NCBI GenBank assembly: GCA_963758525.1 | Contig: CAVWVQ010000003.1 | Coordinates: forward strand, 672,001 to 736,000 | Reading direction: 5' to 3' | Source: an uncultured Phycisphaerales bacterium | GTDB taxonomy: Bacteria > Planctomycetota > Phycisphaerae > Tepidisphaerales > Tepidisphaeraceae | Length of the DNA: 64,000 nucleotides | Shown: positions 3,076 through 54,091 of the stretch, piece after piece | Layout: each line of letters begins with the position of its first letter | How positions within the stretch are numbered: position 1 is the stretch's first letter | Notes under the pieces: generated by a model | The model's input: the letters and a program-made list of their open reading frames with translations, nothing else | Database searches by the model: none | Told to the model about the DNA's origin: nothing | Made by a program: the position numbers and the translations under genes

Positions 3076-5525
3076 TCACTCGACCGACACCAGTTCCTTG
3101 CCAGCACGCGTCAGGTTGATACGGGTTCGTCCGTCGGGCGACTTGGTGAATTTGACGATGTCTTTCTGATCCGACCATGCAATGGCAAGTTGGGTGTGGT
3201 CGCCGTTCCACTGCGTCATCGGTTGCTCGTCTCCTTCGCGATACGGAAAGAGAAGGGTTTTGAAATCGGGCGCCACTGAGTTGCTGGTGATGACCAGCCG
3301 GTGCATCTCGATCGGCCTCTGCGGTGGATTCGGCAGGCTGTATGTCTCCACCGCCGCGGGGCGCTCGGATCGCTCCCTTCGACATTCAATGGCCGCACCA
3401 GCATAAAGCGGGACTTACCTTCCCCCTTCTGCTTCTCGCCGAGAACCACGTCATTTCTGTATGATCCATTTTCTGAATCATGCACTGCCGGGACCTGCAC
3501 TAAGTCGTCTTCAAGCGTCATCCCCCACTGGTATACGTGCGGCGAGGCGTCTTTCTGGATGTCGTCGACGATGAGCACATACGGATGCTTGCCGCGTATC
3601 AGCCCGGCCGTGCGGAAGGCGCGCTGCACGGGGCTGCGGGGGATCCACTTTTCCGAACCCTTCCACGACGTTTGCCAATAGGGCAAGTCACTCCACGGCA
3701 TGCTCATCCAGGGCAGCTCGCTCTTGTGCAGACGAAAATCATTTGCGACGAAGGGGACGCTCTCGCCGCCCTTCGGAAAACGGTTGTTGCCGCCGGTGGT
3801 CCAGTCCCAGGCCGGCTTGGCGTCGGCCGCGATGAACGTCGCCTCGGGATTGTCGATCATCGCATCACAGCGGCACGTCGCCATTCCGGGGCCTTCGCCG
3901 TCGATCAGAACGACCGAGCGATTCTTCGGCAGATAGTGCTCCTCCACCTGCCGCAGCGGTTTGTAAATTGCCCAATAGCGACCCAGCGCGTGAATGCTGA
4001 AATGCGTCCGATCGGCGTACTGATGTCCGCCGGAAATACTACGGGTCAGGAAATGAAGCTGAAGCGCGTCCTTGTCCCACGCGCTGCTCGTGATGAGGTT
4101 GCCGGTCGCATCGCTGAACCACGTCAGTGGCTTCCCCGCGGTGGCGTCCTGGTGAGCCTGGTCCCAGCTCCTGGCGCATAGTCTTCGGCGAAAATCGCCT
4201 GGATCAACCCATCGGACACATGGAACGGATGGCCGAAATGCACGGCGCCCTTGAACGCAGCGTAGTCTTCGCCCACGGTATTGCGATAGACGAAATCGGT
4301 CGCGGCATCGTTGGGAAATAGATGCTTCATCAACAGCACGTCAAACATCGGCGTGGTATTCCCCCGCCCGCCCAATGAGTCGTAGAAGGTAAAGTGCCCT
4401 CCCCAGGGATCCATCGCGTGAAGATAATAATCATCCACCTGCGCCCGCAACGACTTCAGTGCGATCAGGTCGTTCCCCCGATTCGCAATCGGGATCAGAT
4501 TCTCAGTGCAGATGAAGTTCTTACCCATGCTCTCGTACATGTCGCCGGCGGGAAACAGCCCCACGCTCAGGTACCGCTTATACCCCTCCACGCAGCGCTG
4601 ATAGGCGCCGGCGTCATACCCTTTTTCTCCCTCGATGGCGCAGCAGAGAAAAATGAGGCGCATGTGCATGGGGATCCAGTTGGACGTGTTGGCGGGAAAC
4701 GCCGGCAATCCCTCGGCACAGAGAATCGTCATGTTGTCCGACGCCTTGGCGATCACTTCCCGCGCCGCATCGCGCTGATCGCCGGTCATCCACTGATAGC
4801 CAAAGTCGTACCCCAGTCCGAGCAACCCGTGCTGCGTAAGGCCTTTGGTTTCCTGATAGTCATGCAGCGGCGGCATGATCGCGCCCGGTGCGGGCTTGCC
4901 GCGCTGCTTGGCAAAGCTCTTGTCCAGTTCCGCGCCATCCAACCTGGCTAAAGTGACTAACGCCGCCGCTGCCTTCTTCCCACCTGCCTGGTCGTTATCG
5001 ATCAGGCAACGAAACGTTTCGTAAATCATTGCGCAGGAAACTTCCACATCCAGCATCTCTGCCGATCCGTCACCACGAACGGCCGCCGCATACAGCATCC
5101 GCATATTTTGCATTGGGCCCGGTGAGATCCCGCTGCAGCATCGTCCGGATGCCATTCATCTGCAGCGTGCCCGCCTTCGACCCACCGGCCAGTTTTCTTC
5201 GCATCTCAGGAAGATCATCCGCCTGGAACAACACCCGTGGATGCGCTCCCGGCGCCGGTGGCGCTTTGATCCGGTCGGCAGCAATCCCGGTCGCGTCGTA
5301 GTTGAAGACCTGCGGATAGTCGAAGTACTTGTGGATCTCCTCGTCGGTATATCCAAAGTTGTCATTCCGCTTGACCATCGCCATGCCGAGATGCTCGGTG
5401 ACGCTATACGCGTCAGTTCGAGCAGGCCCGACGGATTCGGCTGCAAATGTGAGCGCCGAACCAGCCAGTGCAGCCGCCCCAACGGCGAGCGTCGCGAAAA
5501 CCCTTTGAGATCGCCCAATGATCAT
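3076..5525 (-). CDS. Heparinase II/III-like secreted protein, paralogue 1; split by three frameshifts (~5097, ~4170, ~3358)
   Basis: ORF pieces 5070-5525, 4124-5155, 3216-3947 (frame open up to ~4170) and 3076-3351 join into a protein colinear with 51542-54091: PAPGAHPRVLF, SNWIP, IEGEKGYD, YESMGK, GGHQYADR, AFRTAGLIRGKHPY. Confidence 0.75.
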
Positions 5526-5788: not shown

Positions 5789-8032
5789 TCACGGGAGCGA
5801 GCCGCCGTTGGGGAGAACGATGTCCTGTTTGCGCTGGGGCGGTGAAACAAGCAGACTGACAAGCTTCCCGCCGGCTACCTCTCCTTGAAGTGTTGTCTCG
5901 AACGGTGCATGTAGTTTGAAGTGGGCCTCCCAATTGCTGGGCCAGGCAGGAAGCAGCAGAATCTTTCGGCCGTCGATCTGCATCAGCATTTCCTGAAGTC
6001 CGTTCTCGCCATTTCCGCCGTTGTCTTCATCGGGCATGTAGTCATGGCCTCGGGCCCAGAAGGCGGGGAACTTCAGCGCGGGATCTTTTCGGGTGAGATC
6101 GAACGTGACATCCTTCTGGGCAAGGTCTGTCAGGCCAAGCATGGCTGACTGGATCGGGTCCTGCACCCAGCAGCCGGTGGTCTTGTTTTTTCGCATGGCG
6201 AACGTGTTCAGCGCGACATCCAGGTCAGGCCGGCCAAGGCCGTACAGTCGGAAGGGATAGATTGCGTAGAGCTCGGGATTTTCCGAGTTGTGCGCTTTTG
6301 CCGTCTGCTCCCCTTCGTACGGCAGCAGCACTTTCTTGCCATCGATCATCCCCGTGGGAAGATCGGGCAGTTCACCCTGGATTCGCGTCCAGTTGGCACG
6401 CGTATTCTGGTCAACCAGATCAGCAGGCAGCGCAAGAAGCCGGGCGAGCACCGCGTGCAGGCCGGCAATGTCGGGCGCGGGATTGTGCACCTTCCAATAC
6501 ATCTCAATGGCGTTGTCCGGATCGAGCACCAGCTTGCCGGCAGCATCGTGTGGAAAATGCTGATCGAAAAACGTGAGGATGGCATTGGCGATCGGGAAGA
6601 CGGTGTCGGGAAGGAAAGTCTTGTCGTCCGTGTACTCGTAGTAGTCGAGTCCCATCATGCTCAACTCGAGCAGATCGGTGAAATAATTGGCGGTGTAACT
6701 TCCTTTGCCGTTGCTCGTGAGGTTCTGAAAGCCGCCCCAAAATGGCGCCGTTTCCGCGCAATAGGCCCCGTCGTGGTTGTAATATTGCTTCACCAGCGCC
6801 GCATTAGCGGGAAGCATGTCGCGATACATGTTGAACAACGGCAACATCTCGTCGAAGTCGCCGGCCATGAGCCTGGGCCAGTACATCGCCCGGGTGTTCT
6901 GAAACCAGTATTGCCCGCCCCAGGCGCGAAAGTCGGCGGTGACCGGCTGAATCACCGGAGGCTTGCCGCCCATGTTTTCAGCAGGATGGTCAACAACGAA
7001 GGTCGAGCCGTTGAATTTGATGGGATATGCTCCGCGACCGGCGCAGGCAGTGACAAACCGTTGCAAGACGTATCCTTCGGTCGTCTCTTTCGCCTTGGCC
7101 TCGCCGGTGAGGAAGATCCAGCTTCGGTCCCAGAACTGGTCCCACCATCGCTGATGTTCCTGCCGGGTTTTTTCCAGATCCAGCGCGGCAATGTCTTTTG
7201 CCTGCCGTTCCAATTTGCTCACCCACGCCTCCACCGGTGAAGCCGGCGTGGTGAGCGGGTAAATGGAGATCAGTTGTGAAGTGCAGGGGGCGGCGGATTG
7301 CAGCGTCTTTGCATCGATTGCTTTCAGCCCGTCGCCCTGAATCAGCGCTCCGAAGGTCCAGTCCAGAACATGTGGCTCTGAGCCGGGGCCATCGTGGTGA
7401 TACCAGACGATCTGATCTTTCTGGTCGGGAACGATCGTGTCCGGGCTCAGCTTCTTGATTTTCTCCGTTCGCCAGTCTTCCAGAGCAACTCGCACCGATT
7501 CAGGTTGCTCGCTACGCGCTTCCACGCGGATGACCGGGTGATTCGCATCGACCCAAATGCGGAAAGTTGTCTGTGCGTCGTCTTTGCCTTGCCGGATCTC
7601 GATCTCACCTTCATGCAGTTTCAAGACCTGTACGACCGGAACGTCCGCGGTCGAGTCCCTCGGGCTCATCGAAACCCGGATGCGCCCGAGCTTGGCCAAC
7701 CCGAGCTGATCGTTGGGATTTTCCGTCCAGGCATCCGACTTGCCGATGTAGAAAACAACATCGCCGGTCGGTTCGGTCCAGACGTTCAATGAGATGTCCC
7801 CATTTCCCAGCGGCATTGAGTCAGCAGAGCTCTTGCCCGGCTCGTTCCAAACCACATTGCACCCATTGAGCGCCTTGACGTGATCGAACCCGCCATCGTC
7901 GGCTCGGGCAAGCGGGAGAAAGAGGCAGGGCCGCAAGAAAACGCAAATGATGCAAAGGAGAAGGCAGGGGCTGCGTCTGGTTTGATTGTTGCTGCATTTG
8001 ACTCCTGTGAACGTTGGATTTTCGGTGGCCAT
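5789..8032 (-). CDS. DUF5703 / GH95-like glycoside hydrolase, secreted
   Basis: SMPLGNGDI N-terminal motif, PIKFNGS, WGGQYWFQNTR, ENPELYAIYP, LQEMLMQ...ILLLPAWP..W. Start at ATG 8032 after AGGAG. Confidence 0.75.
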   Translation of the reverse strand: MATENPTFTGVKCSNNQTRRSPCLLLCIICVFLRPCLFLPLARADDGGFDHVKALNGCNVVWNEPGKSSADSMPLGNGDISLNVWTEPTGDVVFYIGKSDAWTENPNDQLGLAKLGRIRVSMSPRDSTADVPVVQVLKLHEGEIEIRQGKDDAQTTFRIWVDANHPVIRVEARSEQPESVRVALEDWRTEKIKKLSPDTIVPDQKDQIVWYHHDGPGSEPHVLDWTFGALIQGDGLKAIDAKTLQSAAPCTSQLISIYPLTTPASPVEAWVSKLERQAKDIAALDLEKTRQEHQRWWDQFWDRSWIFLTGEAKAKETTEGYVLQRFVTACAGRGAYPIKFNGSTFVVDHPAENMGGKPPVIQPVTADFRAWGGQYWFQNTRAMYWPRLMAGDFDEMLPLFNMYRDMLPANAALVKQYYNHDGAYCAETAPFWGGFQNLTSNGKGSYTANYFTDLLELSMMGLDYYEYTDDKTFLPDTVFPIANAILTFFDQHFPHDAAGKLVLDPDNAIEMYWKVHNPAPDIAGLHAVLARLLALPADLVDQNTRANWTRIQGELPDLPTGMIDGKKVLLPYEGEQTAKAHNSENPELYAIYPFRLYGLGRPDLDVALNTFAMRKNKTTGCWVQDPIQSAMLGLTDLAQKDVTFDLTRKDPALKFPAFWARGHDYMPDEDNGGNGENGLQEMLMQIDGRKILLLPAWPSNWEAHFKLHAPFETTLQGEVAGGKLVSLLVSPPQRKQDIVLPNGGSLP

Positions 8033-8240
8033 GTTCTCCTCGTAATCGACGGCGCTGGTTCTGCTGGAGGACGATGCTGGGTTGGCGAATATCGGCACGC
8101 GAACTACCTCCCGCCGTTCTCCATGCGGCGCCGAGGTCCGCAGAAGAGCCGACAACGTTCATCACCGTGACCGCGCCCACTGACCGGCTCTTCAGCGGAC
8201 CCTACGACAATTTGGGAACTGGGCACACCCATATTGCGGG

Positions 8241-9767
8241 CTACCGTCCGACGCGAAAATAGTCGAAGTCGGCAAAGACTCCGTGCGCAGCCGGCGTCGA
8301 TGACAGGGCGAAGACGCCGACTTTTGCTCCCATCCATCCACCTTCCTTTGCCTGAAAGAATTGATCGATTGCGACGAAGTGTCCAGTGACGCCTGCATAG
8401 CTGAACCGGCACGTGGCGGTGGAATCGACGGCGACTCTCAATCGCATGGTTTTGGCTGGAGCCTCGGCACGAAACCGCGGCTCGCCGTTGATGCGCAGGA
8501 CGCATAGGGCGCCGTCGGCGCCTCGCTCCAGCGCGAGCGCGGCGCTTTCGCCGCCTCCGACGATTGCCAGGCCGGCAGAGATTCCGCCGTTTGCGGCAGT
8601 TGCATCCACCAATGTCTCGGCCGAGAAACCGCGGGCTGGGAACTTCTGCATCAGCAGGTTTGGCACTCGCGACAGATCCTTATTTGCTTCAGCCTGAGCG
8701 AAGAGGCGCAGCCAGCCGGGGCGATCGGCCAGCGAATACCAGTCATTTGCATGATTCGCCTGCCATTGCCATTGCAATGCCAGGTTGGGTGAGTCGAATT
8801 CGTCGCTGGTCTGCGGCGAAGGTGTTTCGAAGGTTGCTCCGACGGCAGGCTTTCGCCAAGAAGCCACCGGCTCACCGATGCCGTTGCCGTCGAAGTCCTG
8901 GCCCATCAACGGCCAGTGATTTTTCCATGTGACCGGCTGCAGATGAACGATCCGGCCGAACGGGCCCGTGTCCTGAAAATGAATGAACCAGAACTCGCCG
9001 TTGGGCAGATCGATCAACGCGCCCTGGTGCGGGCCGTTGATTGATGTTGATCCGCGCTCCAGCACGATCTTTTGCTCGTAGGGCCCGAAGATGTCGCGCG
9101 CTCGAAAGGCCACTTGCCACCCCGTCGGCACGCCGCCGCCAGGCGCGAGAATGTAGTACCAGCCGTCGAACTTGTGAACCTTGGGGCCTTCCAGATAGGG
9201 ATGCTGGGGCGCATGGATGACAGCGCGCCCTTCACCGAGAAGAGCAGCGCCATCGGGCGCCATCGGGCGGATGTGAATTGTGTCGCGAATGCCGGCGCGG
9301 GAATTGGCATAGGCATGGGCGAGGTAGGCGCGGCCGTCGTCATCCCAAAAAGGGCATGGATCGATCCAGCCCCGGGCGGCCTGAAGCAACCACGGCTCAC
9401 ACCACTTCCCGGCCGGGTGTTCCGCCGTGGTCACATAGATTCCCTCGTCAGGAAGGGGAAAGAAGATCCAGAACTTCCCGGCATGGAACCGAATCGAGGG
9501 CGCCCACACGCCGCAGCCGGGCTGCACCTGCGCGTAACGGGCGCCCGGCACGTTCTGGATCGCGTGGTTGATCAGCGTCCAGTTGACCAGGTCGCGCGAG
9601 TGAAGGATCGGCAAACCCGGCGTGGCGGTGAAGCTCGACGCGACCATGTAAAACTCATCGCCCTGCCGGATCACATCCGGATCGGAGTAGTCGGCATGGA
9701 TGATCGGATTGCGATAACTGCCGTCACCGGCATCGGAACGCCAGGGATATGTATATTGCGAATCCAT
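8241..9767 (-). CDS. GH43 beta-xylosidase/arabinofuranosidase with C-terminal beta-sandwich; no signal peptide
   Basis: NPIIHADYSDPDV, LHSRDLVNW, WAPSIR, IDPCPFWD, EGPK, HQGAL motifs. Confidence 0.9.
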   Translation of the reverse strand: MDSQYTYPWRSDAGDGSYRNPIIHADYSDPDVIRQGDEFYMVASSFTATPGLPILHSRDLVNWTLINHAIQNVPGARYAQVQPGCGVWAPSIRFHAGKFWIFFPLPDEGIYVTTAEHPAGKWCEPWLLQAARGWIDPCPFWDDDGRAYLAHAYANSRAGIRDTIHIRPMAPDGAALLGEGRAVIHAPQHPYLEGPKVHKFDGWYYILAPGGGVPTGWQVAFRARDIFGPYEQKIVLERGSTSINGPHQGALIDLPNGEFWFIHFQDTGPFGRIVHLQPVTWKNHWPLMGQDFDGNGIGEPVASWRKPAVGATFETPSPQTSDEFDSPNLALQWQWQANHANDWYSLADRPGWLRLFAQAEANKDLSRVPNLLMQKFPARGFSAETLVDATAANGGISAGLAIVGGGESAALALERGADGALCVLRINGEPRFRAEAPAKTMRLRVAVDSTATCRFSYAGVTGHFVAIDQFFQAKEGGWMGAKVGVFALSSTPAAHGVFADFDYFRVGR

Positions 9768-9801
9768 CAGTCTGTTCCACCTCTTGGCCGAGCCGGATTG
9801 G

Positions 9802-10168
9802 TCACGAGGCGTCATTCGGAGGCGCCAGAGGTTCGATTTGCGCGATCAATAGCGGTATATGCACCGTCGCCACTCGCCAGATCAGCGCGTCGTCGATTTC
9901 GCCGTATTCGTGCGATAACCGATGCCTCTGGGCCATGATCGGGCGCCAGGGAATTTTCGGGATGCTCAGATTTGAACGTATCTGAAATGCCGCGGGCCGC
10001 CTCACCGATGATCTCCACCTGACGCTCGACCGCGGACCGGAGCATCAAGTCTGCGGCGTACTGGTAGTACGTGCGTCCGGTCACGAAAATCTGCACCGCC
10101 TTTGCGGCGCCAAGCATGTCGAGCAACCGCGCGCCATCTCTGTTGGGGTCCGGCCGTCTACGCGGCAT
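9802..10168 (-). CDS. hepT: HepT-like HEPN ribonuclease toxin (DUF86); one frameshift at ~9955
   Basis: AVERQVEIIGEAA in one frame continues as IPWRPIMAQRHRLSHEY..D...IW in another (R-X4-H-X-Y motif). The break falls in a TTTT run. Confidence 0.85.
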
Positions 10169-13014: not shown

Positions 13015-14425
13015 CTATCTGAGTCGAACATCCTGCGTCGAGGCTGGCAACCCCGCGGATCGATCGGGAAAATGATCGAACTCCAATTTCACCACCATCA
13101 CTGTATCAGCCAGCTCATTGGCAGGGAGGTTGCGAAGCCGGAGACATTTTTTCTGCCCGATGTATTCGCTGGGAAGCAACTCCACCGCAAACTCGACCGG
13201 GCGTCCATCATTCAGCAGCGTCGCCCGCCTCGGCGCAACATCAATGGGCCCGAGCTTCACAGCTTCGGTCAATGGCTCGCGATGCAGATGAACGTAGAGA
13301 TTGTTTCCCTTGCGCGTCAGCAATACATTGCGGTTGGAAATCAACTCAGAACAGGGCTCCGCGTTCTCCATCGCTTCCTTCACGGCATTATACCATTTGC
13401 CGATGCGCCCGAGGATCGCTGTTTCGTTGGGGCCGATCGTTCCATCAGACATGGGACCGACGTTCAGCAGATAATTGGCATCGCGCGCCAGATACTTGTC
13501 AATGCTGCGCATGAGGTGAACGTCGGTGTAGTAATCCTCGTCCTTTCGGAAGCCCCAGCTTTCGCTGCCGACCGACTGATTGGCTTCGGTCAGCTTGTCA
13601 AACCGCAAGACCTCTTCGCCCGTCGAATCGTAATCGCGTTCTGGCGTACCGAAGTCGCCGGCATCGTAGCCGCGGTTGTTGATCACCGCGGCCGGCTGCA
13701 GTTTGCGGATCATGTCGTTGATCGACGGGTCGTGGTGCTTGTCCACGTTCATGTCCCACCAGAATTCGTGGATCTGGCCGTAGTTCGTGCAGAGTTCGCG
13801 AACCTGCCCCTTGACGAAATTCCAGATACTTCGCCAGATCCGGCTCGTCGCCCGCCTGCGGCGGCAGTTCGTGGTGCCGGCCCTGATTCGGGTAGTTCTT
13901 TTGATGCCAATCAACGCACGAATAATACAGGCCGAGCGGAATCCCTCGCCGATGACACGCATCGGCCAGCATCTTCAGCACGTCCTTGCCGTATGGGGTG
14001 TTGACGGTGTTGTAGTTCGTGAGCTTGCTGTCCCAGAGGCAGAACCCGTCGTGATGCTTGGTCGTCAGGCAGATGTACTTCATGCCGACGCTCTGCAGCA
14101 GATCGAGCCATTTGTCCGGATCGAAATTCACCGGATTCCACTGCTGCTGGAACTTCTGGTACTCGGCGCGTGGTACGCGGGCGCGCCACTGATATTGCTC
14201 GTGCCAGGCGGGGATGGAATACAATCCCCAGTGAACGAACAGGCCGAACCGCTTCTCGAAAAACCAATCTCGTGCGTCGTGGAACCGAGGCGGCGCGGAG
14301 GGCATCACCGGCTGCGTCGCAACGGCGCCGGCCGCCGACGCCGATTGAAGGAGTGCCGGGGTACCAGAGCATCCCGAGGCGATCGCGGCGCCCGCGGCGG
14401 TGCGAAGGAAATCGCGTCTGTTCAT
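13015..14425 (-). CDS. Alpha-L-fucosidase (GH29), Tat-exported; one frameshift at ~13819
   Basis: MNRRDFLR twin-arginine signal; WFFEKRFGLFVHWGLYS, LTTKHHDGF, then QVRELCTNYG...WWD, INNR, NYLLNVGP in the next frame. Confidence 0.88.
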
Positions 14426-14590
14426 TATCATCATCCCATGCAAGATACGTGATTGCAGGAATAACTAGCGGGTTTCTGGAAATTTGTTGCGGTGGTTACC
14501 GGAATAGCTGCGATCCCCTCCTCGATGCGAAATCTCAGACTCGCCACGAGGGTGTAACTTTTATTTGTGGCGATTGCAGATTTTGCGATT

Positions 14591-16565: not shown

Positions 16566-16599
16566 ACGGTCAGCTGTGCAGATTCAGAAGGATCCCACA

Positions 16600-17109: not shown

Positions 17110-17198
17110 TCCCGACGGAATCCGAATATGTGGAATGGCTTTTTTTTTTGGCGTCACGAGAGTGACGCGTCTCGGTCTGTTACGAGGAATGAAATCCG

Positions 17199-40009: not shown

Positions 40010-40055
40010 CGGCGCGGCCCAGGATACGGTTTTGCATCGGCTGCGAGTCGGCGCT

Positions 40056-44005: not shown

Positions 44006-44006
44006 A

Positions 44007-45127
44007 ATGATGATGCATTCCAATGACTTGCTAACCGCCGGGTCCATCGAATCCCTTCCCCAACTGCCAGGAGAGCCGCGGACGGAGAAGGTGCGCATCG
44101 GCATTGTGGGACTGGGTTTCGGCCTGAAATACATGTCCCGGCTCGTCAAGAAGGAACTGGGGAATCTGCCGTTGGAAGTTCGCGCCGTCTGCGACACCAG
44201 CGCGCAACGGCTCCGCGTTGGAGAAGAGACGTTCAACTGCCCGGGCTACAGCAGCCTCGACGTGATGCTCGCAAACGCTGAGTTGGACGCCGTTGGGCTC
44301 TTTACCGGTCCTGCCGGTGCGCGGAAGTTGTGCGGAAAATCATCCGGGCGGGGAAACATGTGATGACCACCAAGCCGTTCGAACTTGATCCTGACGCGTG
44401 CAGGGACGTGCTGGAAGAAGCACGCCGGCTGAACCTCGCGGTGCATTTAAATTCGCCGGCCCCCACGATGCCTGTCGATATCCGGCAAATCGTCGATTGG
44501 CAGAGTGAATACCGGCTCGGAAGACCGGTCGCCGCAACCTGGCAGACCTGGTGCAGCTATCGCGAAACCCCTGACGGCTCGTGGTACGACGACCCGGCCC
44601 TCTGCCCGGCGGCACCCATTTTCCGGCTCGGAATCTATGCGATTAACGATCTGCTCTACTTTTTCAAAGATCCAGAGGAAGTGCATGTGATGCACTCTCG
44701 CATCTTTACCGGCCGTCCGACTCCCGATCAGGCGATGCTCACCATCCGATTCAGGGACGGTTCGCTGGCAAGCATCTTTGCATCTTTTGCTGTCGATAAC
44801 GCCCATCCGTATGCTGACCGGCTGGTGGTCAATTTCGAGCGGGGAGCGGTGTTCCGCAACGCCGGGGTGCGCGCATCGCGTAATCGAATCGATCTGGCGC
44901 TCACCGCAGCGGCCGGGGACGATGGGAAGCCGATCGTGGCCGAGGCCAAGGGGTTTTCGCCCGAGCAATGCGGCGGACACTTTTCATACCAGTGGGACCT
45001 GTTCTGCAAGACCGTGCGACGCGAGCCGACGCCCAAAACTGACCCCTCCGAACATATTGTCCAGGGAATTCGCATCATTGCCGCGATGAGCCGCTCCGAA
45101 CAGTCCGGGAAACCGGAGCGAGTCTAA
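44007..45127 (+). CDS. Gfo/Idh/MocA family oxidoreductase; one frameshift at ~44320
   Basis: VRIGIVGLGFG Rossmann motif, AVCD, LDAV, then AGKHVMTTKPF and G.YAINDL in the next frame. Confidence 0.85.
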
Positions 45128-45214
45128 GGTCTATTTTTCCATCTTTCCGCTCGTTATGATACCGTGCCGTGGCTACAATTGACCTCGCTCCGACAACTTT
45201 AGAGCCTGTGCCCT

Positions 45215-46240
45215 ATGTCAATCCTCGAGGTATCCAAGGCGGCGGGTGTCTCCATTGCGACGGTGTCCCGCGTCATTAACAAAAATCCGCAGGTTTCACC
45301 GGGATCCGTCGAGGCCGTTCGCAAGGCAATGGAGCGAATCGGCTATACACCCCCCCCGCCCAATCAGCGCTATCGCGGAAGGCCGCGAAAGGATGTTGCC
45401 CGCAGCGGCGTGCAACATGGAAATATTGCGGTCCTGTTTCCCGATCATCGGCACCAGGCGATGCAAACCGCCCTGTCGGGCCGTCTGATGCACGGCGTGA
45501 CTGAGATATTGATTCCCCGTCACCTGAACATGCTGGCAACGATCCTGCAGGCGGACGGCGAGGTGCCCTTATGCATCGCTCGCAAACAGGTGGACGGCGT
45601 GATCGTGCGCGGCTCCGTGGATGTCACATCGCTGGTTCCCAAACTCGCGAACATTCCCCGGGTCTGGCTGCTGGAACTGCCAGATGTTCCGGCGGTGGGC
45701 GATCAGGTATTTGAAGATTCCACCGCCATCGGGCGCTCGGCAGCCCGATATTTAATCGGCCACGGTCATCGGCATTTGGCCGTTATCAATCCGGACCCCA
45801 ACCATCCCTGTTACAGCCCGCGCGCTGACGCATTCGCACAGGAGGCGCGACGCAGCGGCGTCAGTGTCGAAATGATTCTCGGGCTTACCCCTGAAGAGGC
45901 GGTGGCGCGAACGCTGGACCTCCAGCCGCGACCGGACGGGCTTTTCCTCCCGGTACCCGACCCTGACTTGATCCCCGTCTATCGCGCGCTCGTGGCACAC
46001 GGGGTACAACCCGGAAAAGATATTGGTTGGATCGGCTGCAGCTATGACCCCGCCCGCCTGGCCGCATTGGATCCCAGTCTTCCCAATATCGATATTCGCG
46101 CCGAAGAAATTGCCCGCGTCGGCGCCGAAATGCTTCTCTGGCGTCTTGGTCATCCAAGCGAGCCGCAGCGTCGCCTGATGATCGCTCCACAAATCGTGGA
46201 ACATGCCAGCGCTCCGCACGCGGATGATTCCCACGTCTGA
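45215..46240 (+). CDS. LacI family transcriptional regulator
   Basis: SILEVSKAAGVSIATVSRVIN helix-turn-helix, IGYTP hinge, VDGVI, YLIGHGHR.LA, R...F sensor domain. Confidence 0.93.
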   Translation: MSILEVSKAAGVSIATVSRVINKNPQVSPGSVEAVRKAMERIGYTPPPPNQRYRGRPRKDVARSGVQHGNIAVLFPDHRHQAMQTALSGRLMHGVTEILIPRHLNMLATILQADGEVPLCIARKQVDGVIVRGSVDVTSLVPKLANIPRVWLLELPDVPAVGDQVFEDSTAIGRSAARYLIGHGHRHLAVINPDPNHPCYSPRADAFAQEARRSGVSVEMILGLTPEEAVARTLDLQPRPDGLFLPVPDPDLIPVYRALVAHGVQPGKDIGWIGCSYDPARLAALDPSLPNIDIRAEEIARVGAEMLLWRLGHPSEPQRRLMIAPQIVEHASAPHADDSHV

Positions 46241-46273: not shown

Positions 46274-48144
46274 ATGCGAGATATCTCTTCGTTAAGAGCG
46301 ACATTCCTCGCATTATTCGTCTTCGCCTTTGCACATCAGGCACTGGCGGTCGAGCTGTACGTTGCGCCCGATGGCAACGACCTCAATGCCGGCACTGCCG
46401 GTGCGCCTCTTGCGCATCTTGAACGGGCTCGCGACATGATTCGTGAAATGAAGCGCCTCCATGGGCTGCCGGCCGGCGGCGTGAAGGTGGTGCTGCATGC
46501 GGGGATCTATTATTTGCAAGGCCCTCTGGTTTTTGAGCCCCAGGACTCCGGATCCGCACCGGCACCGATCGTGTACACAGCCGATGAGAATGCGAACGTC
46601 GTGCTCAGCGGAGGAAGGCCCATCCACGGATGGACAAAGGCCAGGGACAACCTCTGGACTGTTGAGCTGCCGGAGGTGAAGGCGGGGAAGTGGTATTTCC
46701 GCCAGCTTTTCGGCAACGATCAGCGGCTCCAACGCGCCCGCATTCCCGACAAGGGCTTCCTCTATACGCAGGGATCGCTATCGGAATACGCCCCTCTGAT
46801 CAGGCTGCGGGATTTCGCGGGGATCAAGAAGCTGCGCCCGATACATCCCGACGCATACTGCGGCTTCAACTTCGCGCCCGGCGATATCCAGGCATGGGAG
46901 GACATTGACGACGCGGAATTCATTACGTTCCACAGTTGGGAATGCTCCTGGCAGACTGTCCGACGAGTCGACGAAGCAAAACACGATGTGCTTTTCAATT
47001 CGCCGTGCCGCTATCCCGTCGGCAGCTTCACGCCTCATTGCCCGTATCGGATTGAGAACGTCCGGGAAGGTCTGACTCAGCCGGGCGAATGGCAGTTGGA
47101 TCGAAAGACCGGCGTGCTGTCGTATCTTGCCCGGGATGGCGAAGACCCTCATTCGATGCAGATCATCGCACCTGTCCTCGACACCCTCGTTGCGTTCCGG
47201 GGGGACTATCGTGCCCGCAAATATGTCGACTACATCACGCTGCGCGGAATGACCTTCAGCGACGCGAGCTACCCGATGGGCATTTACGACATCGCCCCGG
47301 ACTGGCCGGCGCCGATGCTGAATGTGGATCCAAGCTTCCCCAGGAAGTTCCAACCCGGATATTCCGATGCCCAGGGAGCGCCGCTGTGCGGCCAGGCGAT
47401 CGAAATGAACAGCGCCCGATGGTGCGTCTGGAGCATTGCGAATTGAAGCACCTCGGAGCGTATGGAATCGGCATTTTCGTGGGGTCGAGCAACGACCGCG
47501 TCACCGGCTGCTACATCCACGATGCCGGCGGAGGCGGGATTTTAATCCGGTATCCCAGCCGCACCATAAACGGGTTGGACAAGGCCGATGCGCCGCACGA
47601 CAACCTCGTCGAGAATAATACCATACGCCATATCAGCATGGTTCATCCGTCGGCGGTAGGGATCATGGTCGGCCAATCGTACGCTAACAAGATTTCGCAC
47701 AATGAGATTTCCGATGTCGGCTACGCCGGGATTCATCTCGGCTGGACCTGGGGCCGTGAACCCAATTACACCCGCGATAATCTGATTGAGGCAAACGATG
47801 TTCACGACGTGATGCGCGATGTGGTGGATGCCGCGGGAATCTACTCGCTCGGGATCGAAACCGGCACCGTCTACCTGGCAAACTACGTGCATGACATCCA
47901 CCGCGTAAAGATTGCCGGCGGCCCCTCGTGTGGGTTCTACTTCGACGAAGGCAGCCGCGACATCCATGTCGAGCGAAACGTCGTCCGAAATGTTCCGAAG
48001 ATTCTCAATTTCAACCAGTGCAAAGAAAAGGAGATGACATGGAAAGACAATTATTTGACCGCGGCGGATAACCAAGGCGCCCAGAATCCGGAAATCGAAG
48101 GAATCATCCACGACGCCGGTCCGCAAGCGCCATACCGGCGATAG
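46274..48144 (+). CDS. Secreted right-handed parallel beta-helix protein (GH141-like architecture); one frameshift at ~47422
   Basis: Signal peptide, YVAPDGND...GT...PL..LERARD, LSGG..I.GW, FRQLF, IENV.E.L.QPGEW, ISHNEISDV.Y.GI.LGW.W, GFYFDEGS. Confidence 0.8.
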
Positions 48145-48233
48145 CGAAGGAAGATGCGGACCAATGCAACATGCCTCCGCCCCGCGCAATCGCGTATTTC
48201 ATTTGCCCACCGTTCCCGAAACGCAAGCCGCTC

Positions 48234-49424
48234 ATGGAAGCTCAGCAATTAGAGATCTCGCCGGCGCTCATCAATGAGATGTTTGCCGACGTCCGCCTGC
48301 GCGTTTCCTCGAGCGGTGCAGGCCCCGTGGAAGTCAGTTGCGGGATTTTTGAACTCGGCTATGACAATACAATTCCTCAATCGCCACTCGCCAAGGCATG
48401 TACCTTCCTGCACGGCAATGAAGATGTCGACTGTAGCCGTCAGGCACCCGTCTTGAACCTTGTCGAACGATGCTCGCGGAACGCATCGACGACCGATTCA
48501 GTCCGTACGCATGCCGAGGCCAACGCCATCCCCATTCAGTTGAATCTACGAATCGGCACGCCGATGTTCTGGACTCCTCAGTTGCCCCACCGTTACACGG
48601 CTCTGATCTCAATCAAGTTTGCACGCCGTCAACCCGACCGATGCGAAATCATTTTCGGCATCGGCAGAGATGGAAACCTTTGCGTCATCGAGCGCCCCTC
48701 CTTGCCCCGCCAACTGCCCCCTTCGCCCGACCCCTCTCTGAGTTCGATTTTCATCATCGGCGACTCGACCGCGGCCAGTAATGAAATAAATCAACTCGGC
48801 TGGGGAGACCCGTTGCGCACGTTCTTCGAAAGCGGCAAGATCAACGTGCTGAATCGCGCCCGCGCCGGCCGAAGCACCCGCTCGTTCATCCGCGAAGGCC
48901 TTTGGCGCGACACTTTGGATGAAATGCATCGTGGTGACATCGTGCTGATCCAGTTCGGCCACAATGACGCCGACCACCTGGACCAGGGCCGTTGCCGCGG
49001 CGTGTTGCCTGGGATCGGTGACGAGACCCGTGAAGTGGCCGTCTCCGGTGGAGAATTCGAAACGGTGAATACCTTCGGCTGGTACTTGCGTCAGATGCTC
49101 GCCGACGTACGAAGAAAAGGCGGCCATCCTATCCTTCTTTCTCCCACCGCGAAGAACCTATGGAACGACGGTAGCCTTCACCCCGACCAGGGTCCCCACG
49201 GCAACTGGAGCGCACAGGTTGCCAGTTCAGGGCAGACCCCGTTTATCAACGCGGGCGCATTGATCGCCTCGCAATACAACGCCCTGGGGCCGGAGCGAGT
49301 CTCATCGCTTTTCTGCAACACCGCCGATACCGTGCATACCAGTCCGGCAGGCGCTCGTCTCAATGCCGGCGTTGTTGCTTCAGCCTTGAGAGCGATCCCA
49401 AATCTGCCCGGCTGGTGCTATTAA
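48234..49424 (+). CDS. Rhamnogalacturonan acetylesterase-like SGNH hydrolase (CE12-like) with an extra N-terminal region
   Basis: IIGDST, GWG, NRARAGRSTRSF, IQFGHND, DTVH (SGNH blocks). Start 48171 or 48234. Confidence 0.85.
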   Translation: MEAQQLEISPALINEMFADVRLRVSSSGAGPVEVSCGIFELGYDNTIPQSPLAKACTFLHGNEDVDCSRQAPVLNLVERCSRNASTTDSVRTHAEANAIPIQLNLRIGTPMFWTPQLPHRYTALISIKFARRQPDRCEIIFGIGRDGNLCVIERPSLPRQLPPSPDPSLSSIFIIGDSTAASNEINQLGWGDPLRTFFESGKINVLNRARAGRSTRSFIREGLWRDTLDEMHRGDIVLIQFGHNDADHLDQGRCRGVLPGIGDETREVAVSGGEFETVNTFGWYLRQMLADVRRKGGHPILLSPTAKNLWNDGSLHPDQGPHGNWSAQVASSGQTPFINAGALIASQYNALGPERVSSLFCNTADTVHTSPAGARLNAGVVASALRAIPNLPGWCY

Positions 49425-49547: not shown

Positions 49548-51440
49548 TCATAGGTTCGAATCGAAGACCACCAGCGGTCCTTCCGGAGTTTTCTGCCAGG
49601 TCCATGGGCTTTCCGAAACCGGCCAAGTTTTGTAGTCGACCACTTTTCCGTCGATCAGGTCCGGCCCGTCAAAGGTGCATTGAAGCGTAGCGTTGAGACG
49701 GTTGCAGTAGATCGCCGCGGCGGGATTTTGCCCCTGCAGTTTGAGCGAACTCCTGGCGATCAGCGTCTGGCGGAACTGGGCCAACTGTTCCGCCGCAGTA
49801 GCGCCGGGAAAATCTGCCGGCGGTGCCGTCTCGATGGCGATCGCGGACGCCGATGATTTCACGCGAAATTCCGAATCGCCCGGGCGCGGCTTGGATGCCG
49901 GGGCGTAAATTCCGCCTGATGGGTTCCACTTGAACGGCTGCGACGCGGTGACGGCGACGAGCGCGCTGCCGTAGTTCAGGTAAATCCGGCCGGTGGTTTC
50001 GCTCTCGTTGATCATCGCCAGATATCCGCCGGGGACATAACCCAGCGCATAGGGAAATCTGGCGTTGGGCCCGATTTGGAAGACGAAAAGCAGGCTGTCG
50101 CGACCGAGGATCTCCTGCTCGAACGAATCGACGCCGTGCGTGTGGATGCCCATGTTATTCGGCTCGTCCTCCGAGGGATTAGTAATCCAGAGATGGCTCC
50201 CCTTGCTCGTGTCCGGCTGGTCAAACATCACGCCGCACGGGTAGCTCTGCCCCTGAAAGGGTCTGCCCCCGGCTTTGGCCGAGCGGGAGAAGAGGGCGTA
50301 GGAGCGGTTGACGTAGTGGTTCAGCGCCCAGCCATCGATGAGGGCGCGATAAAAGTAGGCAGTGGAGCGGTCGGTGGCCGCGTGCACGATGACATCGGGA
50401 ATTCGGAAGTTGCTCACCGCCGGCTCGGCGGCGGCCTTGGCGTGTGTCAGAAGCGGAGCCACGCCGCCGAAGTAGAGCCAGGGAATTGTCGCCACGCCCC
50501 ACGGTTGCTGGCACTCGGTGTCCGGATACGAACGCGGCGCGAACGTCGCCAGATTCCCGCGCTGCCATGCCGGCGCCAACTGCACGAGGCATACCTCGAA
50601 GGCGATTCGCGCCTGCGCCGCCATCGTGGGATCCCTGGCACAATCGGCCAGCGTGAGGAGGGGGAGGATGTTTTGCGCGCCGTAGGGCCGGGACGCGAAT
50701 TCGCCGGGACCACCTCTGACGGTGGAGGCGATGATGCTTTGCAGATATTTCTCGCCGGCGGGGTCGCCCCTGGCGAACGAAGTTCCCCAGACTTGGCCGG
50801 GGGCGTTGAGCTTCGCCGTCATCTGCATGATGTAGGGATCTTTGGTGGTGAAGTACGGATCGGCATGGAAGGCGTCGGGGCCCCAAACCTGCGTCGCCAG
50901 ATACCGTTCCATGGCAGCCATGATCTTGTGGTTGCTCGTGGAGAGCCGGGCGTAGAATACGCCTCCCGTGTAAATCTTGCGGTAGCGTTCTTTGGTCTGC
51001 GGATCGAGGAATTTTTCGAAACGGATGTAGCAGTCGATGCCCGGCCATGCAAAAAATCCGGTATTGCCGCCGTGCATCCAGCGATTGATCCTGTTTCCCG
51101 GCACCAGGGGATCCAGTCCCTTATTCACCTCAGCCAATCCCTCTGTTGTGCGCCCCAGAGCGAAGAGACACTCCGCCCGCATGAAGTGATCGCTTCCACC
51201 GGCAGCAAAGGTGTTAAGGACCGCCTGCCTCCGTTCATCGAAGCTTTCCATGGCCGGGTTGGATGGGATAGCAGACGCCTGCGTTGTCGTTGGCGTCGCG
51301 ACCGGCTGCGAAGTGGGTTCGCCGGGTGATTCATCTTTGGTGTGATCCTCGTCCCCCGCCCAAGTCGGCCGAGCGATCAAAAGCGTCATGCCCATAAGCA
51401 GAATGAACGAGCAAGCGGGAGAGGAAGAAGTGCGCCTCAT
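49548..51440 (-). CDS. Uncharacterised secreted protein (~630 aa); start uncertain
   Basis: Long ORF with signal-like LLMGMTLLIARPTWA and a Pro/Thr linker; TSNH..M and GEF.S..Y motifs; co-directional with 51542-54091. Confidence 0.7.
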   Translation of the reverse strand: MRRTSSSPACSFILLMGMTLLIARPTWAGDEDHTKDESPGEPTSQPVATPTTTQASAIPSNPAMESFDERRQAVLNTFAAGGSDHFMRAECLFALGRTTEGLAEVNKGLDPLVPGNRINRWMHGGNTGFFAWPGIDCYIRFEKFLDPQTKERYRKIYTGGVFYARLSTSNHKIMAAMERYLATQVWGPDAFHADPYFTTKDPYIMQMTAKLNAPGQVWGTSFARGDPAGEKYLQSIIASTVRGGPGEFASRPYGAQNILPLLTLADCARDPTMAAQARIAFEVCLVQLAPAWQRGNLATFAPRSYPDTECQQPWGVATIPWLYFGGVAPLLTHAKAAAEPAVSNFRIPDVIVHAATDRSTAYFYRALIDGWALNHYVNRSYALFSRSAKAGGRPFQGQSYPCGVMFDQPDTSKGSHLWITNPSEDEPNNMGIHTHGVDSFEQEILGRDSLLFVFQIGPNARFPYALGYVPGGYLAMINESETTGRIYLNYGSALVAVTASQPFKWNPSGGIYAPASKPRPGDSEFRVKSSASAIAIETAPPADFPGATAAEQLAQFRQTLIARSSLKLQGQNPAAAIYCNRLNATLQCTFDGPDLIDGKVVDYKTWPVSESPWTWQKTPEGPLVVFDSNL

Positions 51441-51541
51441 GATGCGATGATTGCTTGAAACGGGCATTCGCCGGTAAACAGCCGGCAACAGCAAACCCAC
51501 GGCGCCGGGAAGGAAGCGCTGAGCCACCTCATGCCGGCTCC

Positions 51542-54091
51542 TCAGTTGAGATGCAGGAGCGACTGCCCGTTTCGCTCAATTTCCAGCCCGGTTCGACCGC
51601 CGGCGGCGGGTGAGAAGGTGATCGCGTCGGCCTGATCGGGCCACTGAATCTTGAGCACCGTTTTGTCCGCATTCCAGGATGTGGTCGGCAAGGGCTGGCC
51701 GGTAGTGTATGGAACGAAGAGCATCTTGAAACGCGGGTCGTTTGATTTGCTGTGGATGCACAGCTTCGGGAAGGTGACCGGCTTCATTCCTCCGTTGTCA
51801 TCGGAGATGGTTTCAATCTTCGCAGGCTGTTTGGGATCGACGTTTGCGCCGTCGAGCACACGTATCAGCATATGGCGATCGTGATTCGGAGCGAACAGCT
51901 CACCGTCATCGGCCATTTGTTTTGCCGTGGTGCTGGGGCTTTCATCGAGCATGACATCCAGTCGATAGTGGGCCGGATCGGCATCGTGGGCGGATTTGCC
52001 CAGTTCCACGTCGTCAGCGATGGTCAGGCCCCAACTGTAATCCCGCGTCTGCTCGTCCTTTTGAATGTCATCGATGATCAGCACGTAGGGATGCACGCCG
52101 CGCACCAGGCCGGCGGTGCGGAACGCCTTCTTGACCGGAATTTCCGCCTGATGCCACAGCGCCGACGGCGGCGGCTCGTCATTCTTCGCCGCGACATGAT
52201 TGCCGGTGTCCAGGCCCCAAAGATTCGGTTTGCGCGAAGTGTACCAATCGGGCCCGGCATCCAGCGGCAGGTCCATCCACGGCATCGGCGCGGGATGCAG
52301 CCGGAAATAATTATCGCTGAACGGCAGCATCACGATCTTGCTGCGATCCTTCACGTGAATCAGCCCGTTGGCCAGATAGTCATACGTCGGCTTGAGATCG
52401 GAGACCTCAAACGACGCCTCGGGCTGGTCTTCAAAGGCAACGCACTTGCCGGGCGCGAGGGTCGAACCTTCGCCGTCGATGAGAATCAGCGAGCGATTAC
52501 GCGGAAGATATTGATCCCCGACCTGACGCAGCTTTCGATAGATGCCCCAGTAGCGCCCATCAGCGTAGATGGAGAAGTGACCGCGATCGCTGTACTGGTG
52601 GCCGCCCCTGACCGCCCGGTTGAGATAGTTGAGGTAGAGCGCTTTGGGATCCCAGCTCGACCGCGTGATCATGTTGCAGGTGTCATCGCTGAAATACGTG
52701 ATCGGCGTCGACTTCACCACCTGATTGCGCTCTTCCTCGAGCGTGACGGATTCGTTGTACTCCTGGGCGTACAGTGCGTTCACCAATGCTTCCGTGGCCA
52801 GGAACGGGTGGCGCGTGTTCACCGGCTCGGCGAAGTTGGAATAGTCGGGCTTGATATTGTTGCGATAGACAAAGTCGACGGCGACATCATTTGGGAAAAG
52901 ATATTTGTAAGCCAGGATATCCGCATTCCGCGAGACATGGTCGTTGGTGCCGCCCAGAGAATCATAGAATGTGTCCGCCATTCCCCAGGGGTTGAGCGAG
53001 GCAATGAAATAACTGTGAAACGCGTCGTGCAGATGCGATGCGGCAATCAGATTCTCCCCACGGCGAGCCATGGCGATGAGGTGTTCGTTGAAGGTGAAGA
53101 ACTTGCCCATTCCCTCGTACCCTTCGCCGCCGGCGAAGATGCCGCGCGTGACCACACCGCGATAGGCATAGACGCAGCGGTCGTAGGTGGAGCGGTCGTA
53201 GCCGGGCTCCCCTTCGATGGCGAGCGTCGGAAAAATAAGGCGGGCGCTCCAGGTGATCCAGTTGCTGCTGTTGGTCGTCTGGCCGTAGAGCGTCTGGCAG
53301 CCGATATTGGTCATTCCCTTGCTGGCCCGCGAGCAGGCAGCGCGAACAATCTGCCGCTGGTCATCGCTCATCCAGTTGTAGGCAAAGTCGTACATCAGCC
53401 CCAGCGTTCCCTCCTGCGTGGCGCCTTCGGCAACCACGCGGAAATCGTTGGAGCTGTCCTGCTCTCCCGGCTTGGTCGACTTGCGGGCCTTTTCGATGTT
53501 GGCGTCAATCGCCTTGTGGTCGATCTTCGCCAGCGTCGTGATCGCGGCGGCGACTTTCTTGCCGCCTGCGTCGTCCTTGTCGATCAGGCAACGAAATGCC
53601 TCATACATCAGGTTATAGGTGAGGTTGAGCTTTGACGCTCCCGAAGCCGTGGAAAAAACGTCCACCGTCTCGTCCCCGTCGATCAGTCGTTGATACTCCG
53701 CGCCAAAAACCGCCTTGGGGCCGGTGAGGTTGCGTTCGATGTTGGTCCGGATCGCCGTCATCTGCAACTTGCCCGGCTTGGTCCGCGCCAACCGTTCGCG
53801 GATGGCGGGCAGTTCGTCCGGATTGAAGAGAATGCGCGGATGCACAAACGGCGCCGGAGGCGATTGAAGGCGGTCCATCGCTTCTCCGGCCGTATCCAGG
53901 TCGATTTCGAGCGGCTGACTGAAGAGCTTTTGGATCTCCTCCGCCGTATAGCCAAAATCGCCGTTGCGATGGACCATCTCCATATCGAGAGGAATGAGCT
54001 TTTTCTGCGTGGAATCCGCAAAGACCGACGCCGAAAACAACGACGCCAGCAAGATGATTGCACCCAAGGCCGCCTTCAATTGCGACTGCAT
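51542..54091 (-). CDS. Heparinase II/III-like secreted protein, paralogue 5 (closest to paralogue 1)
   Basis: GGAGTGAGG-ATG at 54091, signal peptide; PAPFVHPRILF, SNWIT, IEGEPGYD, YEGMGK, ARRGENL, GGHQYSDRGHF, AFRTAGLVRGVHPY..IDDIQKD. Confidence 0.72.
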   Translation of the reverse strand: MQSQLKAALGAIILLASLFSASVFADSTQKKLIPLDMEMVHRNGDFGYTAEEIQKLFSQPLEIDLDTAGEAMDRLQSPPAPFVHPRILFNPDELPAIRERLARTKPGKLQMTAIRTNIERNLTGPKAVFGAEYQRLIDGDETVDVFSTASGASKLNLTYNLMYEAFRCLIDKDDAGGKKVAAAITTLAKIDHKAIDANIEKARKSTKPGEQDSSNDFRVVAEGATQEGTLGLMYDFAYNWMSDDQRQIVRAACSRASKGMTNIGCQTLYGQTTNSSNWITWSARLIFPTLAIEGEPGYDRSTYDRCVYAYRGVVTRGIFAGGEGYEGMGKFFTFNEHLIAMARRGENLIAASHLHDAFHSYFIASLNPWGMADTFYDSLGGTNDHVSRNADILAYKYLFPNDVAVDFVYRNNIKPDYSNFAEPVNTRHPFLATEALVNALYAQEYNESVTLEEERNQVVKSTPITYFSDDTCNMITRSSWDPKALYLNYLNRAVRGGHQYSDRGHFSIYADGRYWGIYRKLRQVGDQYLPRNRSLILIDGEGSTLAPGKCVAFEDQPEASFEVSDLKPTYDYLANGLIHVKDRSKIVMLPFSDNYFRLHPAPMPWMDLPLDAGPDWYTSRKPNLWGLDTGNHVAAKNDEPPPSALWHQAEIPVKKAFRTAGLVRGVHPYVLIIDDIQKDEQTRDYSWGLTIADDVELGKSAHDADPAHYRLDVMLDESPSTTAKQMADDGELFAPNHDRHMLIRVLDGANVDPKQPAKIETISDDNGGMKPVTFPKLCIHSKSNDPRFKMLFVPYTTGQPLPTTSWNADKTVLKIQWPDQADAITFSPAAGGRTGLEIERNGQSLLHLN

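Follow-up and report, generated by a model that had tools for sequence, protein, structure and literature searches.

A probable new polysaccharide lyase family with a new catalytic variant in a glycan locus of a Phycisphaerales bacterium

Five paralogous genes and their family

The window analysed here is a stretch of 64,000 nucleotides of contig CAVWVQ010000003.1 (assembly GCA_963758525.1) from an uncultured Phycisphaerales bacterium. It contains five genes, g1 to g5 (Table 1), which an earlier sequence-only reading had described as paralogues of a possibly unclassified lyase or epimerase family resembling heparinase II/III, and all five lie where that reading placed them. When the whole 6.47-Mb genome was searched by tblastn with four of the five proteins (E≤1e-3), matches were obtained at exactly five places, the g1-g5 sites. 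Pairwise identities are 21-42% (E 1e-26 to 0), far above chance. The series of shared motifs recurs in the order given earlier: an HPR motif (PPAPGAHPRV, PPPGVYPRV, PPPGVHPRI, PAPGVHPRI or PPAPFVHPRI), NW, IEG/D..G(Y/F), a His motif (HQYAD, HHHSD, HEHAD, HPYAD or HQYSD) and an R..G.VRG.HPY..DD..KD...Y.W block. The YE..(G/A)K motif of the series is found in g1, g2, g4 and g5, whereas g3 reads TEAVGY. Judged from the alignments, this K/Y difference is the key feature of the five proteins. Signal peptides (a hydrophobic stretch ending at an A-x-A-like site) and start sites were called by eye. The g2 protein has an extra N-terminal region of ~230 residues, for which an atlas search weakly suggested (score 0.78) a relation to copper-amine-oxidase N-terminal domains.

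Two of the five are not single open reading frames (ORFs): g1 changes frame near 5107, 4175 and 3360, and g3 does so near 30893. Read through with X, both are stop-free, and each g1 piece is 45-69% identical to the intact homologues P0040, P0059 and P0070. A 422-base contig of the public run X1 (99% alike, depth 3.6) spans 30893 with two letters more and restores a single frame in g3; no bridging of the g1 breaks was found among the public contigs. Several neighbouring genes in the window are likewise split between frames, and 12 of the 42 clear orthologues identified here from 150 ORFs of the congener G001 contain frame changes, a rate of 0.18 per kb. Four breaks are seen in g1-g5, as against 2.4 predicted from the assembly-wide rate (P 0.22). 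The frameshifts of g1 and g3 are most likely assembly errors, and true pseudogenes are disfavoured, since orthologues of G001 genes show frame changes at this rate across the assembly. Gene g1 may nevertheless be decaying, because three breaks within it alone are high for the average rate (P 0.01) and none was bridged by public contigs.

None of the Pfam or NCBIfam lyase models reached its cut-off with g1-g5. Below the gathering cut-off, g3 scored 14.8 of 24 bits with Hepar_II_III_C (PF07940) and g5 scored 14.5 of 28.7 bits with DUF4962 (PF16332); g1, g2 and g4 did not match the Pfam lyase-domain models, and NCBIfam HepB gave 17 bits against a cut-off of 600. A lyase-domain cut-off was passed by none of 23 homologues. 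A single-sequence search of the PDB with g4 returned no meaningful match, and a language-model search placed g5 among heparinase II/III and DUF4962 clusters (0.95-0.96). A profile built from the four long window ORFs selected 222 proteins out of 7997 candidates, the named ones being hypothetical or LamG-domain proteins. For the family models and solved polysaccharide lyase (PL) families compared, the proteins do not fall inside an existing PL family with good coverage. On these profile searches g1-g5 likely represent a so far unclassified family within the heparinase II/III fold group.

We consider it improbable that g1-g5 are ordinary members of an existing CAZy family without a solved structure, such as PL30, PL32, PL34 or PL37. 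The comparison made here covers Pfam, NCBIfam and the solved PL families, and PL34 is reported with the same fold (PMC11890756), which would leave room for such a placement. However, PL34 clusters with PL15 at E≤1e-24 in that article, whereas our family profiles reach PL15 at E 6e-5 to 2e-4; the named homologues are labelled hypothetical, and the Lys would still need explaining. The founding sequences of PL30, PL32, PL34, PL37 and other structure-less families are listed in PMC6442616, and the supplementary target list of that article could include an untested member of the present family.

Active site and predicted fold

A profile of 38 g3-like sequences was aligned with the PL35 enzyme GAGase II (8KHV). 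NW fell on NW, EAVGY on EGYSY and HEHAD on HAHMD, which correspond to Asn192, Tyr246 and His401 of GAGase II as counted on the printed alignments (offset 22). Ala mutants of these three residues are inactive and define the essential triad of PL35 (PMC12088678). Because the three motifs align with this triad, g3 is read as carrying the canonical Asn/Tyr/His set. In g1, g2, g4 and g5 the Tyr column is occupied by Lys (ESMGK, ESNGK, EGEAK and EGMGK), and a profile-profile alignment puts EGMGK on EAVGY gap-free. The spacing from Asn to Lys/Tyr is 52-53 in g1-g5, compared with 53 in PL33 (N238/Y291) and 54 in PL35. When 17 outside DUF4962 proteins (one of them a PL35 relative, 331 bits to 8KHW) were aligned jointly with the family, a Tyr occupied the Lys column in 16 of them. 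Among the 150 best representatives at 50% identity, the column holds 117 Lys, 24 Tyr, six other residues and three gaps, with the Asn conserved in 144, the Glu in 144 and the His in 145. Both Lys codons are used (34 AAG and 25 AAA in 59 genes). A compensating Tyr elsewhere in the Lys-type proteins was sought, and none specific to the Lys rows was found at ≥80% conservation.

The sequence-only reading had taken the catalytic His to vary among the paralogues, a view not borne out by its near constancy. The varying residue of the H..D motif is the metal ligand two positions on (H+2), a position that coordinates metal in PL35 (PMC12088678) and in the dermatan sulfate epimerase DS-epi1 (PMC8006597) and is needed for activity. 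The H+2 His is kept in g2, g3 and 22 of 24 Tyr rows and lost in g1, g4, g5 and most Lys rows. Several positions are better conserved in Lys rows, namely G329, D391, R410, R492, the GG before the His, and N594. As the alignments stand, the real divergence of the paralogues is Tyr to Lys at the acid/base position, a change that the sequence-only reading missed. Two further branches were observed: one (L015, L046, L056, L076; INNH / ESIK type) has Asn-His and a Lys one residue earlier, and the other (L051, L077) has neither Tyr nor Lys in the catalytic column.

It is very unlikely that the Lys-type members are catalytically dead glycan-binding partners of the Tyr-type lyase. Replacement of the Tyr leaves residual activity in PL33 (PMC11848413) and none in PL35 (PMC12088678), and the metal ligand is mostly lost in Lys rows, both of which speak for binders. 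A dead site, however, is expected to drift, whereas the Lys is fixed across 117 clusters of <50% mutual identity and in both codons; the Asn and His are kept, and Lys-type genes are also found where there is no core Tyr-type gene.

Structure comparisons were made with an AlphaFold2 model of g5 built from a 120-row alignment (predicted local distance difference test score, pLDDT, 94.4; predicted template modelling score 0.93); a single-sequence AlphaFold prediction of g2 (pLDDT 32.7) was discarded. The N-terminal half of the model is alpha-helical and the C-terminal half is beta. Top Foldseek matches were PL15, PL35, PL39, PL21, PL12, DS-epi1, PL17, PL40 and PL33 (E 4e-18 to 3e-10), with identities of 9-13%. 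VIA-align gave these matches Z 22.1-26.5 over 526-611 residues (root-mean-square deviation, rmsd, 3.9-5.6 Å), many of them tied, and the next fold group after the lyases and the epimerase reached Z≤15.9. Identity in the structural alignments was 9-16% to PL12, 15, 17, 21, 33, 35, 39, 40 and the dermatan epimerase. The family is thus predicted from the g5 model to have an (alpha/alpha)n toroid with an antiparallel beta-sheet domain, and the model and its matches bear out the toroid and beta-sandwich layout supposed earlier.

The same comparisons bear on whether the family, or its Lys branch, could be a uronate C5-epimerase like DS-epi1 that remodels linkages for other enzymes, which we think most improbable. 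Human DS-epi1 (6HZN) tied as best structural match (Z 26.5, rmsd 5.2 Å, 605 residues aligned), and small active-site changes may convert a lyase to an epimerase (PMC8006597). Its Z value, however, is tied with many lyases, and DS-epi1 requires His205, Tyr261 and Tyr473 according to the same article. His205, which by counting follows the Asn in HNH, falls on the Trp of NW, and this Trp is present in g1-g5 and 110 of the 117 Lys rows. Of the original lyase-or-epimerase proposal, the epimerase half is unlikely, as Trp occupies the place where DS-epi1 needs His. We favour, with somewhat better than balanced confidence, the reading that g1-g5 are secreted polysaccharide lyases and that four of them use Lys instead of Tyr as the catalytic acid/base.

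Distribution, gene neighbourhood and candidate substrate

With a 120-sequence profile the family comprises 593 clusters of 50% identity at E≤1e-30, 1180 at 1e-10 and 2101 at 1e-3. Of 511 pattern matches in GTDB contigs, 223 proved genuine on confirmation; the 76 loci retained come from Planctomycetota, Verrucomicrobiota (including Lentisphaeria and Kiritimatiellia), Bacteroidota and Armatimonadota. The spread is patchy: at E≤1e-20, matches occur in six of 141 genomes of the host's family and in neither of two congeners (completeness 81 and 94%). Matches per genome were counted in 50 genomes chosen as carriers (50 of the 76 loci), and five Verrucomicrobia genomes (G288, G282, G286, G289, G284) have at least 16-19 each at E≤1e-40. 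Several members carry extra LamG, PA14, Fn3, Ig, PKD or type IX secretion system (T9SS) modules. Cultured carriers exist (Lentisphaera marina, with four members in L015, Pontiella desulfatans and Novipirellula herctigrandis), and the substrate should therefore be findable by growth and proteomics.

A tree was calculated from 98 rows (the five window proteins, every third long representative, 29 locus ORFs and 17 DUF4962 proteins) with the active-site loop columns removed. It placed 81 family rows on one long branch, with a Shimodaira-Hasegawa-like approximate likelihood ratio test (SH-aLRT) value of 99 in a quick search without bootstrap. Four old subfamilies were resolved, A (g1, g5), B (g4), C (g2) and the Tyr type (g3), so the five genes are not a local expansion but four old subfamilies plus one extra member. 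Recent tandem duplication is rejected, every paralogue being nearer to genes of other genomes than to its neighbouring paralogues. The tree requires three changes for Lys, and Lys may have had a single origin. At least two family ORFs occur in 29 of the 76 loci; some of these ORFs, such as all three in L018, are fragments of a single broken gene. In most multi-gene loci different subfamilies are combined: all four types occur in L069 and in L033 (where a contig end cuts one of them), and three types in L065 and in L012. The subfamilies recur together in unrelated phyla, and Tyr- and Lys-type genes often adjoin each other. Several genomes have Lys-type genes but no core Tyr-type gene; the isolate genome of L034, with one family match, is among them.

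Table 1. Genes and other features of the window (GH, glycoside hydrolase; aa, amino acids)
Feature	Coordinates	Strand	Remarks
g1, Lys-type, subfamily A	3076..5525	-	~814 aa read through frame changes; Asn 4679-4681, Lys 4520-4522, His 4023-4025
g2, Lys-type, subfamily C	21562..24780	+	1072 aa; HHHSD keeps H+2 metal ligand; Asn 23029, Lys 23188-23190, His 23761
g3, Tyr-type, read as canonical Asn/Tyr/His triad with H+2 ligand (HEHAD)	28784..31295	+	Asn 29615, Tyr 29774-29776, His 30266
g4, Lys-type, subfamily B	31387..34026	+	879 aa; Asn 32248, Lys 32404-32406, His 32905
g5, Lys-type, subfamily A, modelled protein	51542..54091	-	849 aa; Asn 53261-53263, Lys 53102-53104, His 52598-52600
GH29 alpha-L-fucosidase	1262..2983	-	Directly downstream of g1; Pfam PF01120, E 5.5e-90
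DUF5703 / GH95-like glycosidase	5789..8155	-	
GH43 with beta-xylosidase C-terminal domain	8241..9815	-	
Nucleotidyltransferase + HEPN (MntA/HepT-like), candidate toxin-antitoxin pair	9812-10466	-	Two small ORFs; by eye
PVC-type DUF7133/HEAT/CxxCH cytochrome protein	10538-12966	-	Two frames
Second GH29 fucosidase	13015..14443	-	Two frames
Four tandem copies of a small unassigned protein ending in CPDGSADGLEKVDP	14735-20333	+	~165 aa
Three prepilin-type (N-methyl motif) proteins	15633..19791	+	Two with weak DUF1559 matches
BD-FAE-type esterase	20311..21513	+	Directly upstream of g2
Two unassigned proteins with alpha/beta-hydrolase-like GHSG motif	24874..28677	+	Between g2 and g3; first in two frames
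GH3 glycosidase	35153..37285	-	
GH141-like beta-helix protein	37870..40294	-	Two frames
GH28-like glycosidase	40056..41483	-	
Sodium:solute symporter, Gfo/Idh/MocA oxidoreductase, LacI regulator	41711..46240	+	
Second GH141-like beta-helix protein and GDSL esterase	46274..49424	+	Beta-helix protein in two frames
659-aa protein	49548..51527	-	Directly downstream of g5
tRNA-Arg(ACG)	54141-54214	-	Ends 50 bases upstream of g5; one edge of glycan locus

Glycoside hydrolases and esterases surround the five genes and support the earlier suggestion that the locus is aimed at a complex glycan. Neighbouring ORFs of the window and of 77 loci (78 sequence sets) were clustered by BLAST, one representative of each cluster was named, and 81 further ORFs were examined. 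GH29 was found in 12 of the 78 sets, SASA esterases in 10, GH141-like beta-helix and BD-FAE proteins in nine each, GH43 in eight, GH88/105 in seven, GH2 and GH3 in five each, three GH95-type clusters in four each, GDSL in four and GH28 in three; GH52 and a galactarate/altronate dehydratase are also among the neighbours. A sulfatase motif was present in one of 1201 neighbour ORFs, from one locus, and the host genome itself has few sulfatases. The seven loci in which GH88/105 unsaturated-uronyl hydrolases adjoin the family include L022, where two Lys-type genes lie beside a GH88/105 in a genome with only two family matches at E≤1e-40. These neighbours point to a glycan that contains fucose, xylose and uronate and is O-acetylated but not sulfated; it may be, for example, an algal or cyanobacterial exopolysaccharide (slime) or a root mucilage.

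Relatives of the two GHSG-motif proteins flank the family in five other loci, including L015, L035, L062 and L079. They share a GHSG/GESG motif resembling a nucleophile elbow and a later His, and are possibly a new carbohydrate esterase family by these motifs; a further likely copy lies left of the window (G000:C3:652606-654486). The 659-aa protein had no Pfam, NCBIfam or PDB sequence match, and one relative of it occurs near family genes in L087. The DUF7133 cytochrome protein, the Gfo/Idh/MocA gene (44330-45127) and a 3-keto-disaccharide hydrolase (56869-57714) hint at oxidative glycoside cleavage. The genes for the small proteins ending in CPDGSADGLEKVDP are interleaved with the three prepilin/DUF1559-type genes along a stretch of lower GC content (53%), and a promoter scan of 14400-21600 stayed at chance level. 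Together with a TIGR02604 protein, the prepilin/DUF1559 genes suggest a PVC-group host, probably a planctomycete. Intergenic palindromic repeats with a CCCTCTCCCGG...CCGGGAGAGGG core lie at 24909-25078, 26910-27037, 28703-28759 and 37325-37698. Integration at the tRNA-Arg beside g5 was considered and rejected, there being no duplicated tRNA end near the locus.

Proposed mechanism and comparison with known enzymes

In the mechanism we propose, the Asn of NW would neutralise the carboxylate of a 4-linked D-uronate of glucuronate type for syn elimination as in PL12, PL33, PL35 and PL40, and the His of the beta domain would assist the elimination. Tyr in g3, or Lys in the others, would take the C5 proton and return it to the leaving oxygen; alternatively, Tyr/Lys would act as the acid and His as the base. 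The product would carry a 4,5-unsaturated end. Lys and Tyr have similar reach and pKa. Asn-Trp without an adjacent His appears to be the pattern of PL12, PL33, PL35 and PL40. Tyr is described as the acid/base on D-glucuronate in PL12 and PL33 (PMC11848413), and the families with a His beside the neutralising residue also cut L-uronates, a His that DS-epi1 requires as well (PMC8006597). A precedent for Lys as a Tyr substitute is the jelly-roll enzyme Aly36B of PL36, as given in a review (PMC8618178); Lys-based chemistry is thus reported in other folds and unreported for the heparinase II/III fold in the literature searched. The four old subfamilies would attack one fucose-, xylose- and uronate-rich glycan, O-acetylated but not sulfated, and would divide its linkages or decoration states among them, and the neighbouring fucosidases, xylosidases and esterases would strip its side groups.

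Several observations weigh against Lys-dependent lyases. The H+2 metal ligand is missing in 95 of the 117 Lys rows, and the 117:24 ratio of Lys to Tyr is biased, the search profile being mostly Lys-type. The equivalence of Lys and Tyr stands on alignment and spacing, and the Lys-rich profile, when aligned directly to 8KHV with HMMER, is out of register at the active-site loop. The helix after the Lys is four residues shorter in Lys-type proteins, and the local geometry therefore differs. GH88/105 clustered beside the family in just seven of the 78 sequence sets; none lies in the window, and the 91%-complete genome gave no match to PF07470 or to KduI (PF04962), so that a route for the unsaturated products is not evident there.

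Part of this evidence suits another account, that g3 alone is a classical lyase and the Lys-type members run different chemistry on the same scaffold. The Lys branch might then remove or hydrate the unsaturated uronate left by g3, catalyse some other acidic-sugar elimination or form a Schiff base with a carbonyl sugar. The coupling of Lys to metal-ligand loss and the positions conserved specifically in Lys rows are consistent with it, as are the frequent side-by-side arrangement of the two types and the host genome in which no GH88/105 was seen; the Gly-x-Gly-Lys loop might also be likened to an anion-binding nest. Nevertheless we judge this account unlikely, since the elimination site retains its Asn, Trp, Glu and His, several genomes (that of L034 among them) have Lys-type genes but no core Tyr-type gene, and the pair in L022 lies next to a GH88/105. 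Lys-dependent elimination thus remains the reading we prefer, and overall the five genes probably represent a novel lyase family that includes a new catalytic variant. More tentatively, and with slightly less than balanced confidence, we propose that, within the heparinase/alginate-lyase toroid fold, this large uncatalogued family is the first to employ Lys, mostly without the metal ligand, that it forms a conserved four-subfamily toolkit against an abundant unsulfated fucose-xylose-uronate slime without a described depolymerase, and that the Lys branch may exceed plain beta-elimination.

The main interest is the Lys, together with the metal-ligand loss linked to it and the mixed set of genes that recurs across loci, rather than a new family as such. 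The literature searched, outside which lay most subscription papers and supplements, contained in its available parts no account of this family or of a Lys-type enzyme of the heparinase II/III fold, and the characterised enzymes of that fold listed there all have Tyr at the Lys/Tyr position. A natural Tyr/Lys pair in one family and one gene cluster offers a direct test of the phenol versus the amine role and of the tie to the metal site. Because the family is large, missed by Pfam and NCBIfam, and strongly expanded in some freshwater, soil and marine genomes of the Planctomycetes-Verrucomicrobia-Chlamydiae (PVC) group, PVC lyase repertoires are likely under-counted.

Among known systems, PL35 (GAGase II, 8KHV; GAGase VII, 8KHW; chondroitinase, 9O3Q) is the best sequence-profile match (34.9 bits, E 4e-8). 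The fold is the same (Z 26.0, rmsd 4.2 Å, 530 aligned), and Asn-Trp, Glu-x-x-x-Tyr and His-x-His-x-Asp all line up with g3. Identity, however, is ~13-16%, the family proteins are 200+ residues longer, four of the five have Lys for Tyr246, and g1, g4 and g5 are without the Mn ligand equivalent to His403. Whereas a real PL35 relative scores 328-331 bits with one sequence, the family profiles score 25.7 and 34.9 bits against 8KHV, and the family forms a separate tree branch.

PL33 (BtPL33HA, 8R70-8R75; Z 22.7-23.9) has a similar NW-type triad, N238/Y291/H444, with an Asn-to-acid spacing of 53. These hyaluronan/gellan lyases perform syn elimination on D-glucuronate with invariant Asn238, Tyr291 and His444 (PMC11848413); unlike the present family, at 10-11% identity, they have the invariant Tyr and a conserved Zn site. 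The PL40 ulvan lyase Uly1040 (9VTK) and the PL12 heparinase III (4MMH) share the fold (Z 25.6 and 24.4), and PL40 uses Asn245-Trp246 as neutraliser, Tyr305 as acid and His485 as base (PMC12915356). At 11-12% identity, these enzymes differ in having Tyr, a metal-activated His and sulfated substrates, whereas sulfatase motifs occur in one family locus. When PDB sequences were searched with the profiles at E≤10 and E≤1, PL12, PL33 and PL40 gave no match, and their identity to the family in structural alignments is 9-12%.

PL15, PL17, PL21 and PL39 (exoHep, 6LJA; Atu3025, 3A0O; Alg17c, 4NEI; heparinase II, 2FUQ; Dp0100, 6JP4) resemble the family in their two-domain fold (Z 24-26.4), in the HPR motif near the N terminus and in the His of the beta domain. 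In contrast, identity is 9-15%, the profiles give ≤28.5 bits, and all of them use Tyr. They also have a His beside the neutralising position (for example His311, His202 and His187; PMC12088678, Table 4), where g1-g5 have Trp. DS-epi1 has the same fold and needs Mn besides His205, Tyr261 and Tyr473 (PMC8006597), whereas the family has Trp at His205 and mostly Lys at Tyr261. The PL36 alginate lyase Aly36B is built on a beta-jelly-roll, an unrelated scaffold, yet resembles the Lys-type members in having Lys in place of Tyr as acid and base (PMC8618178).

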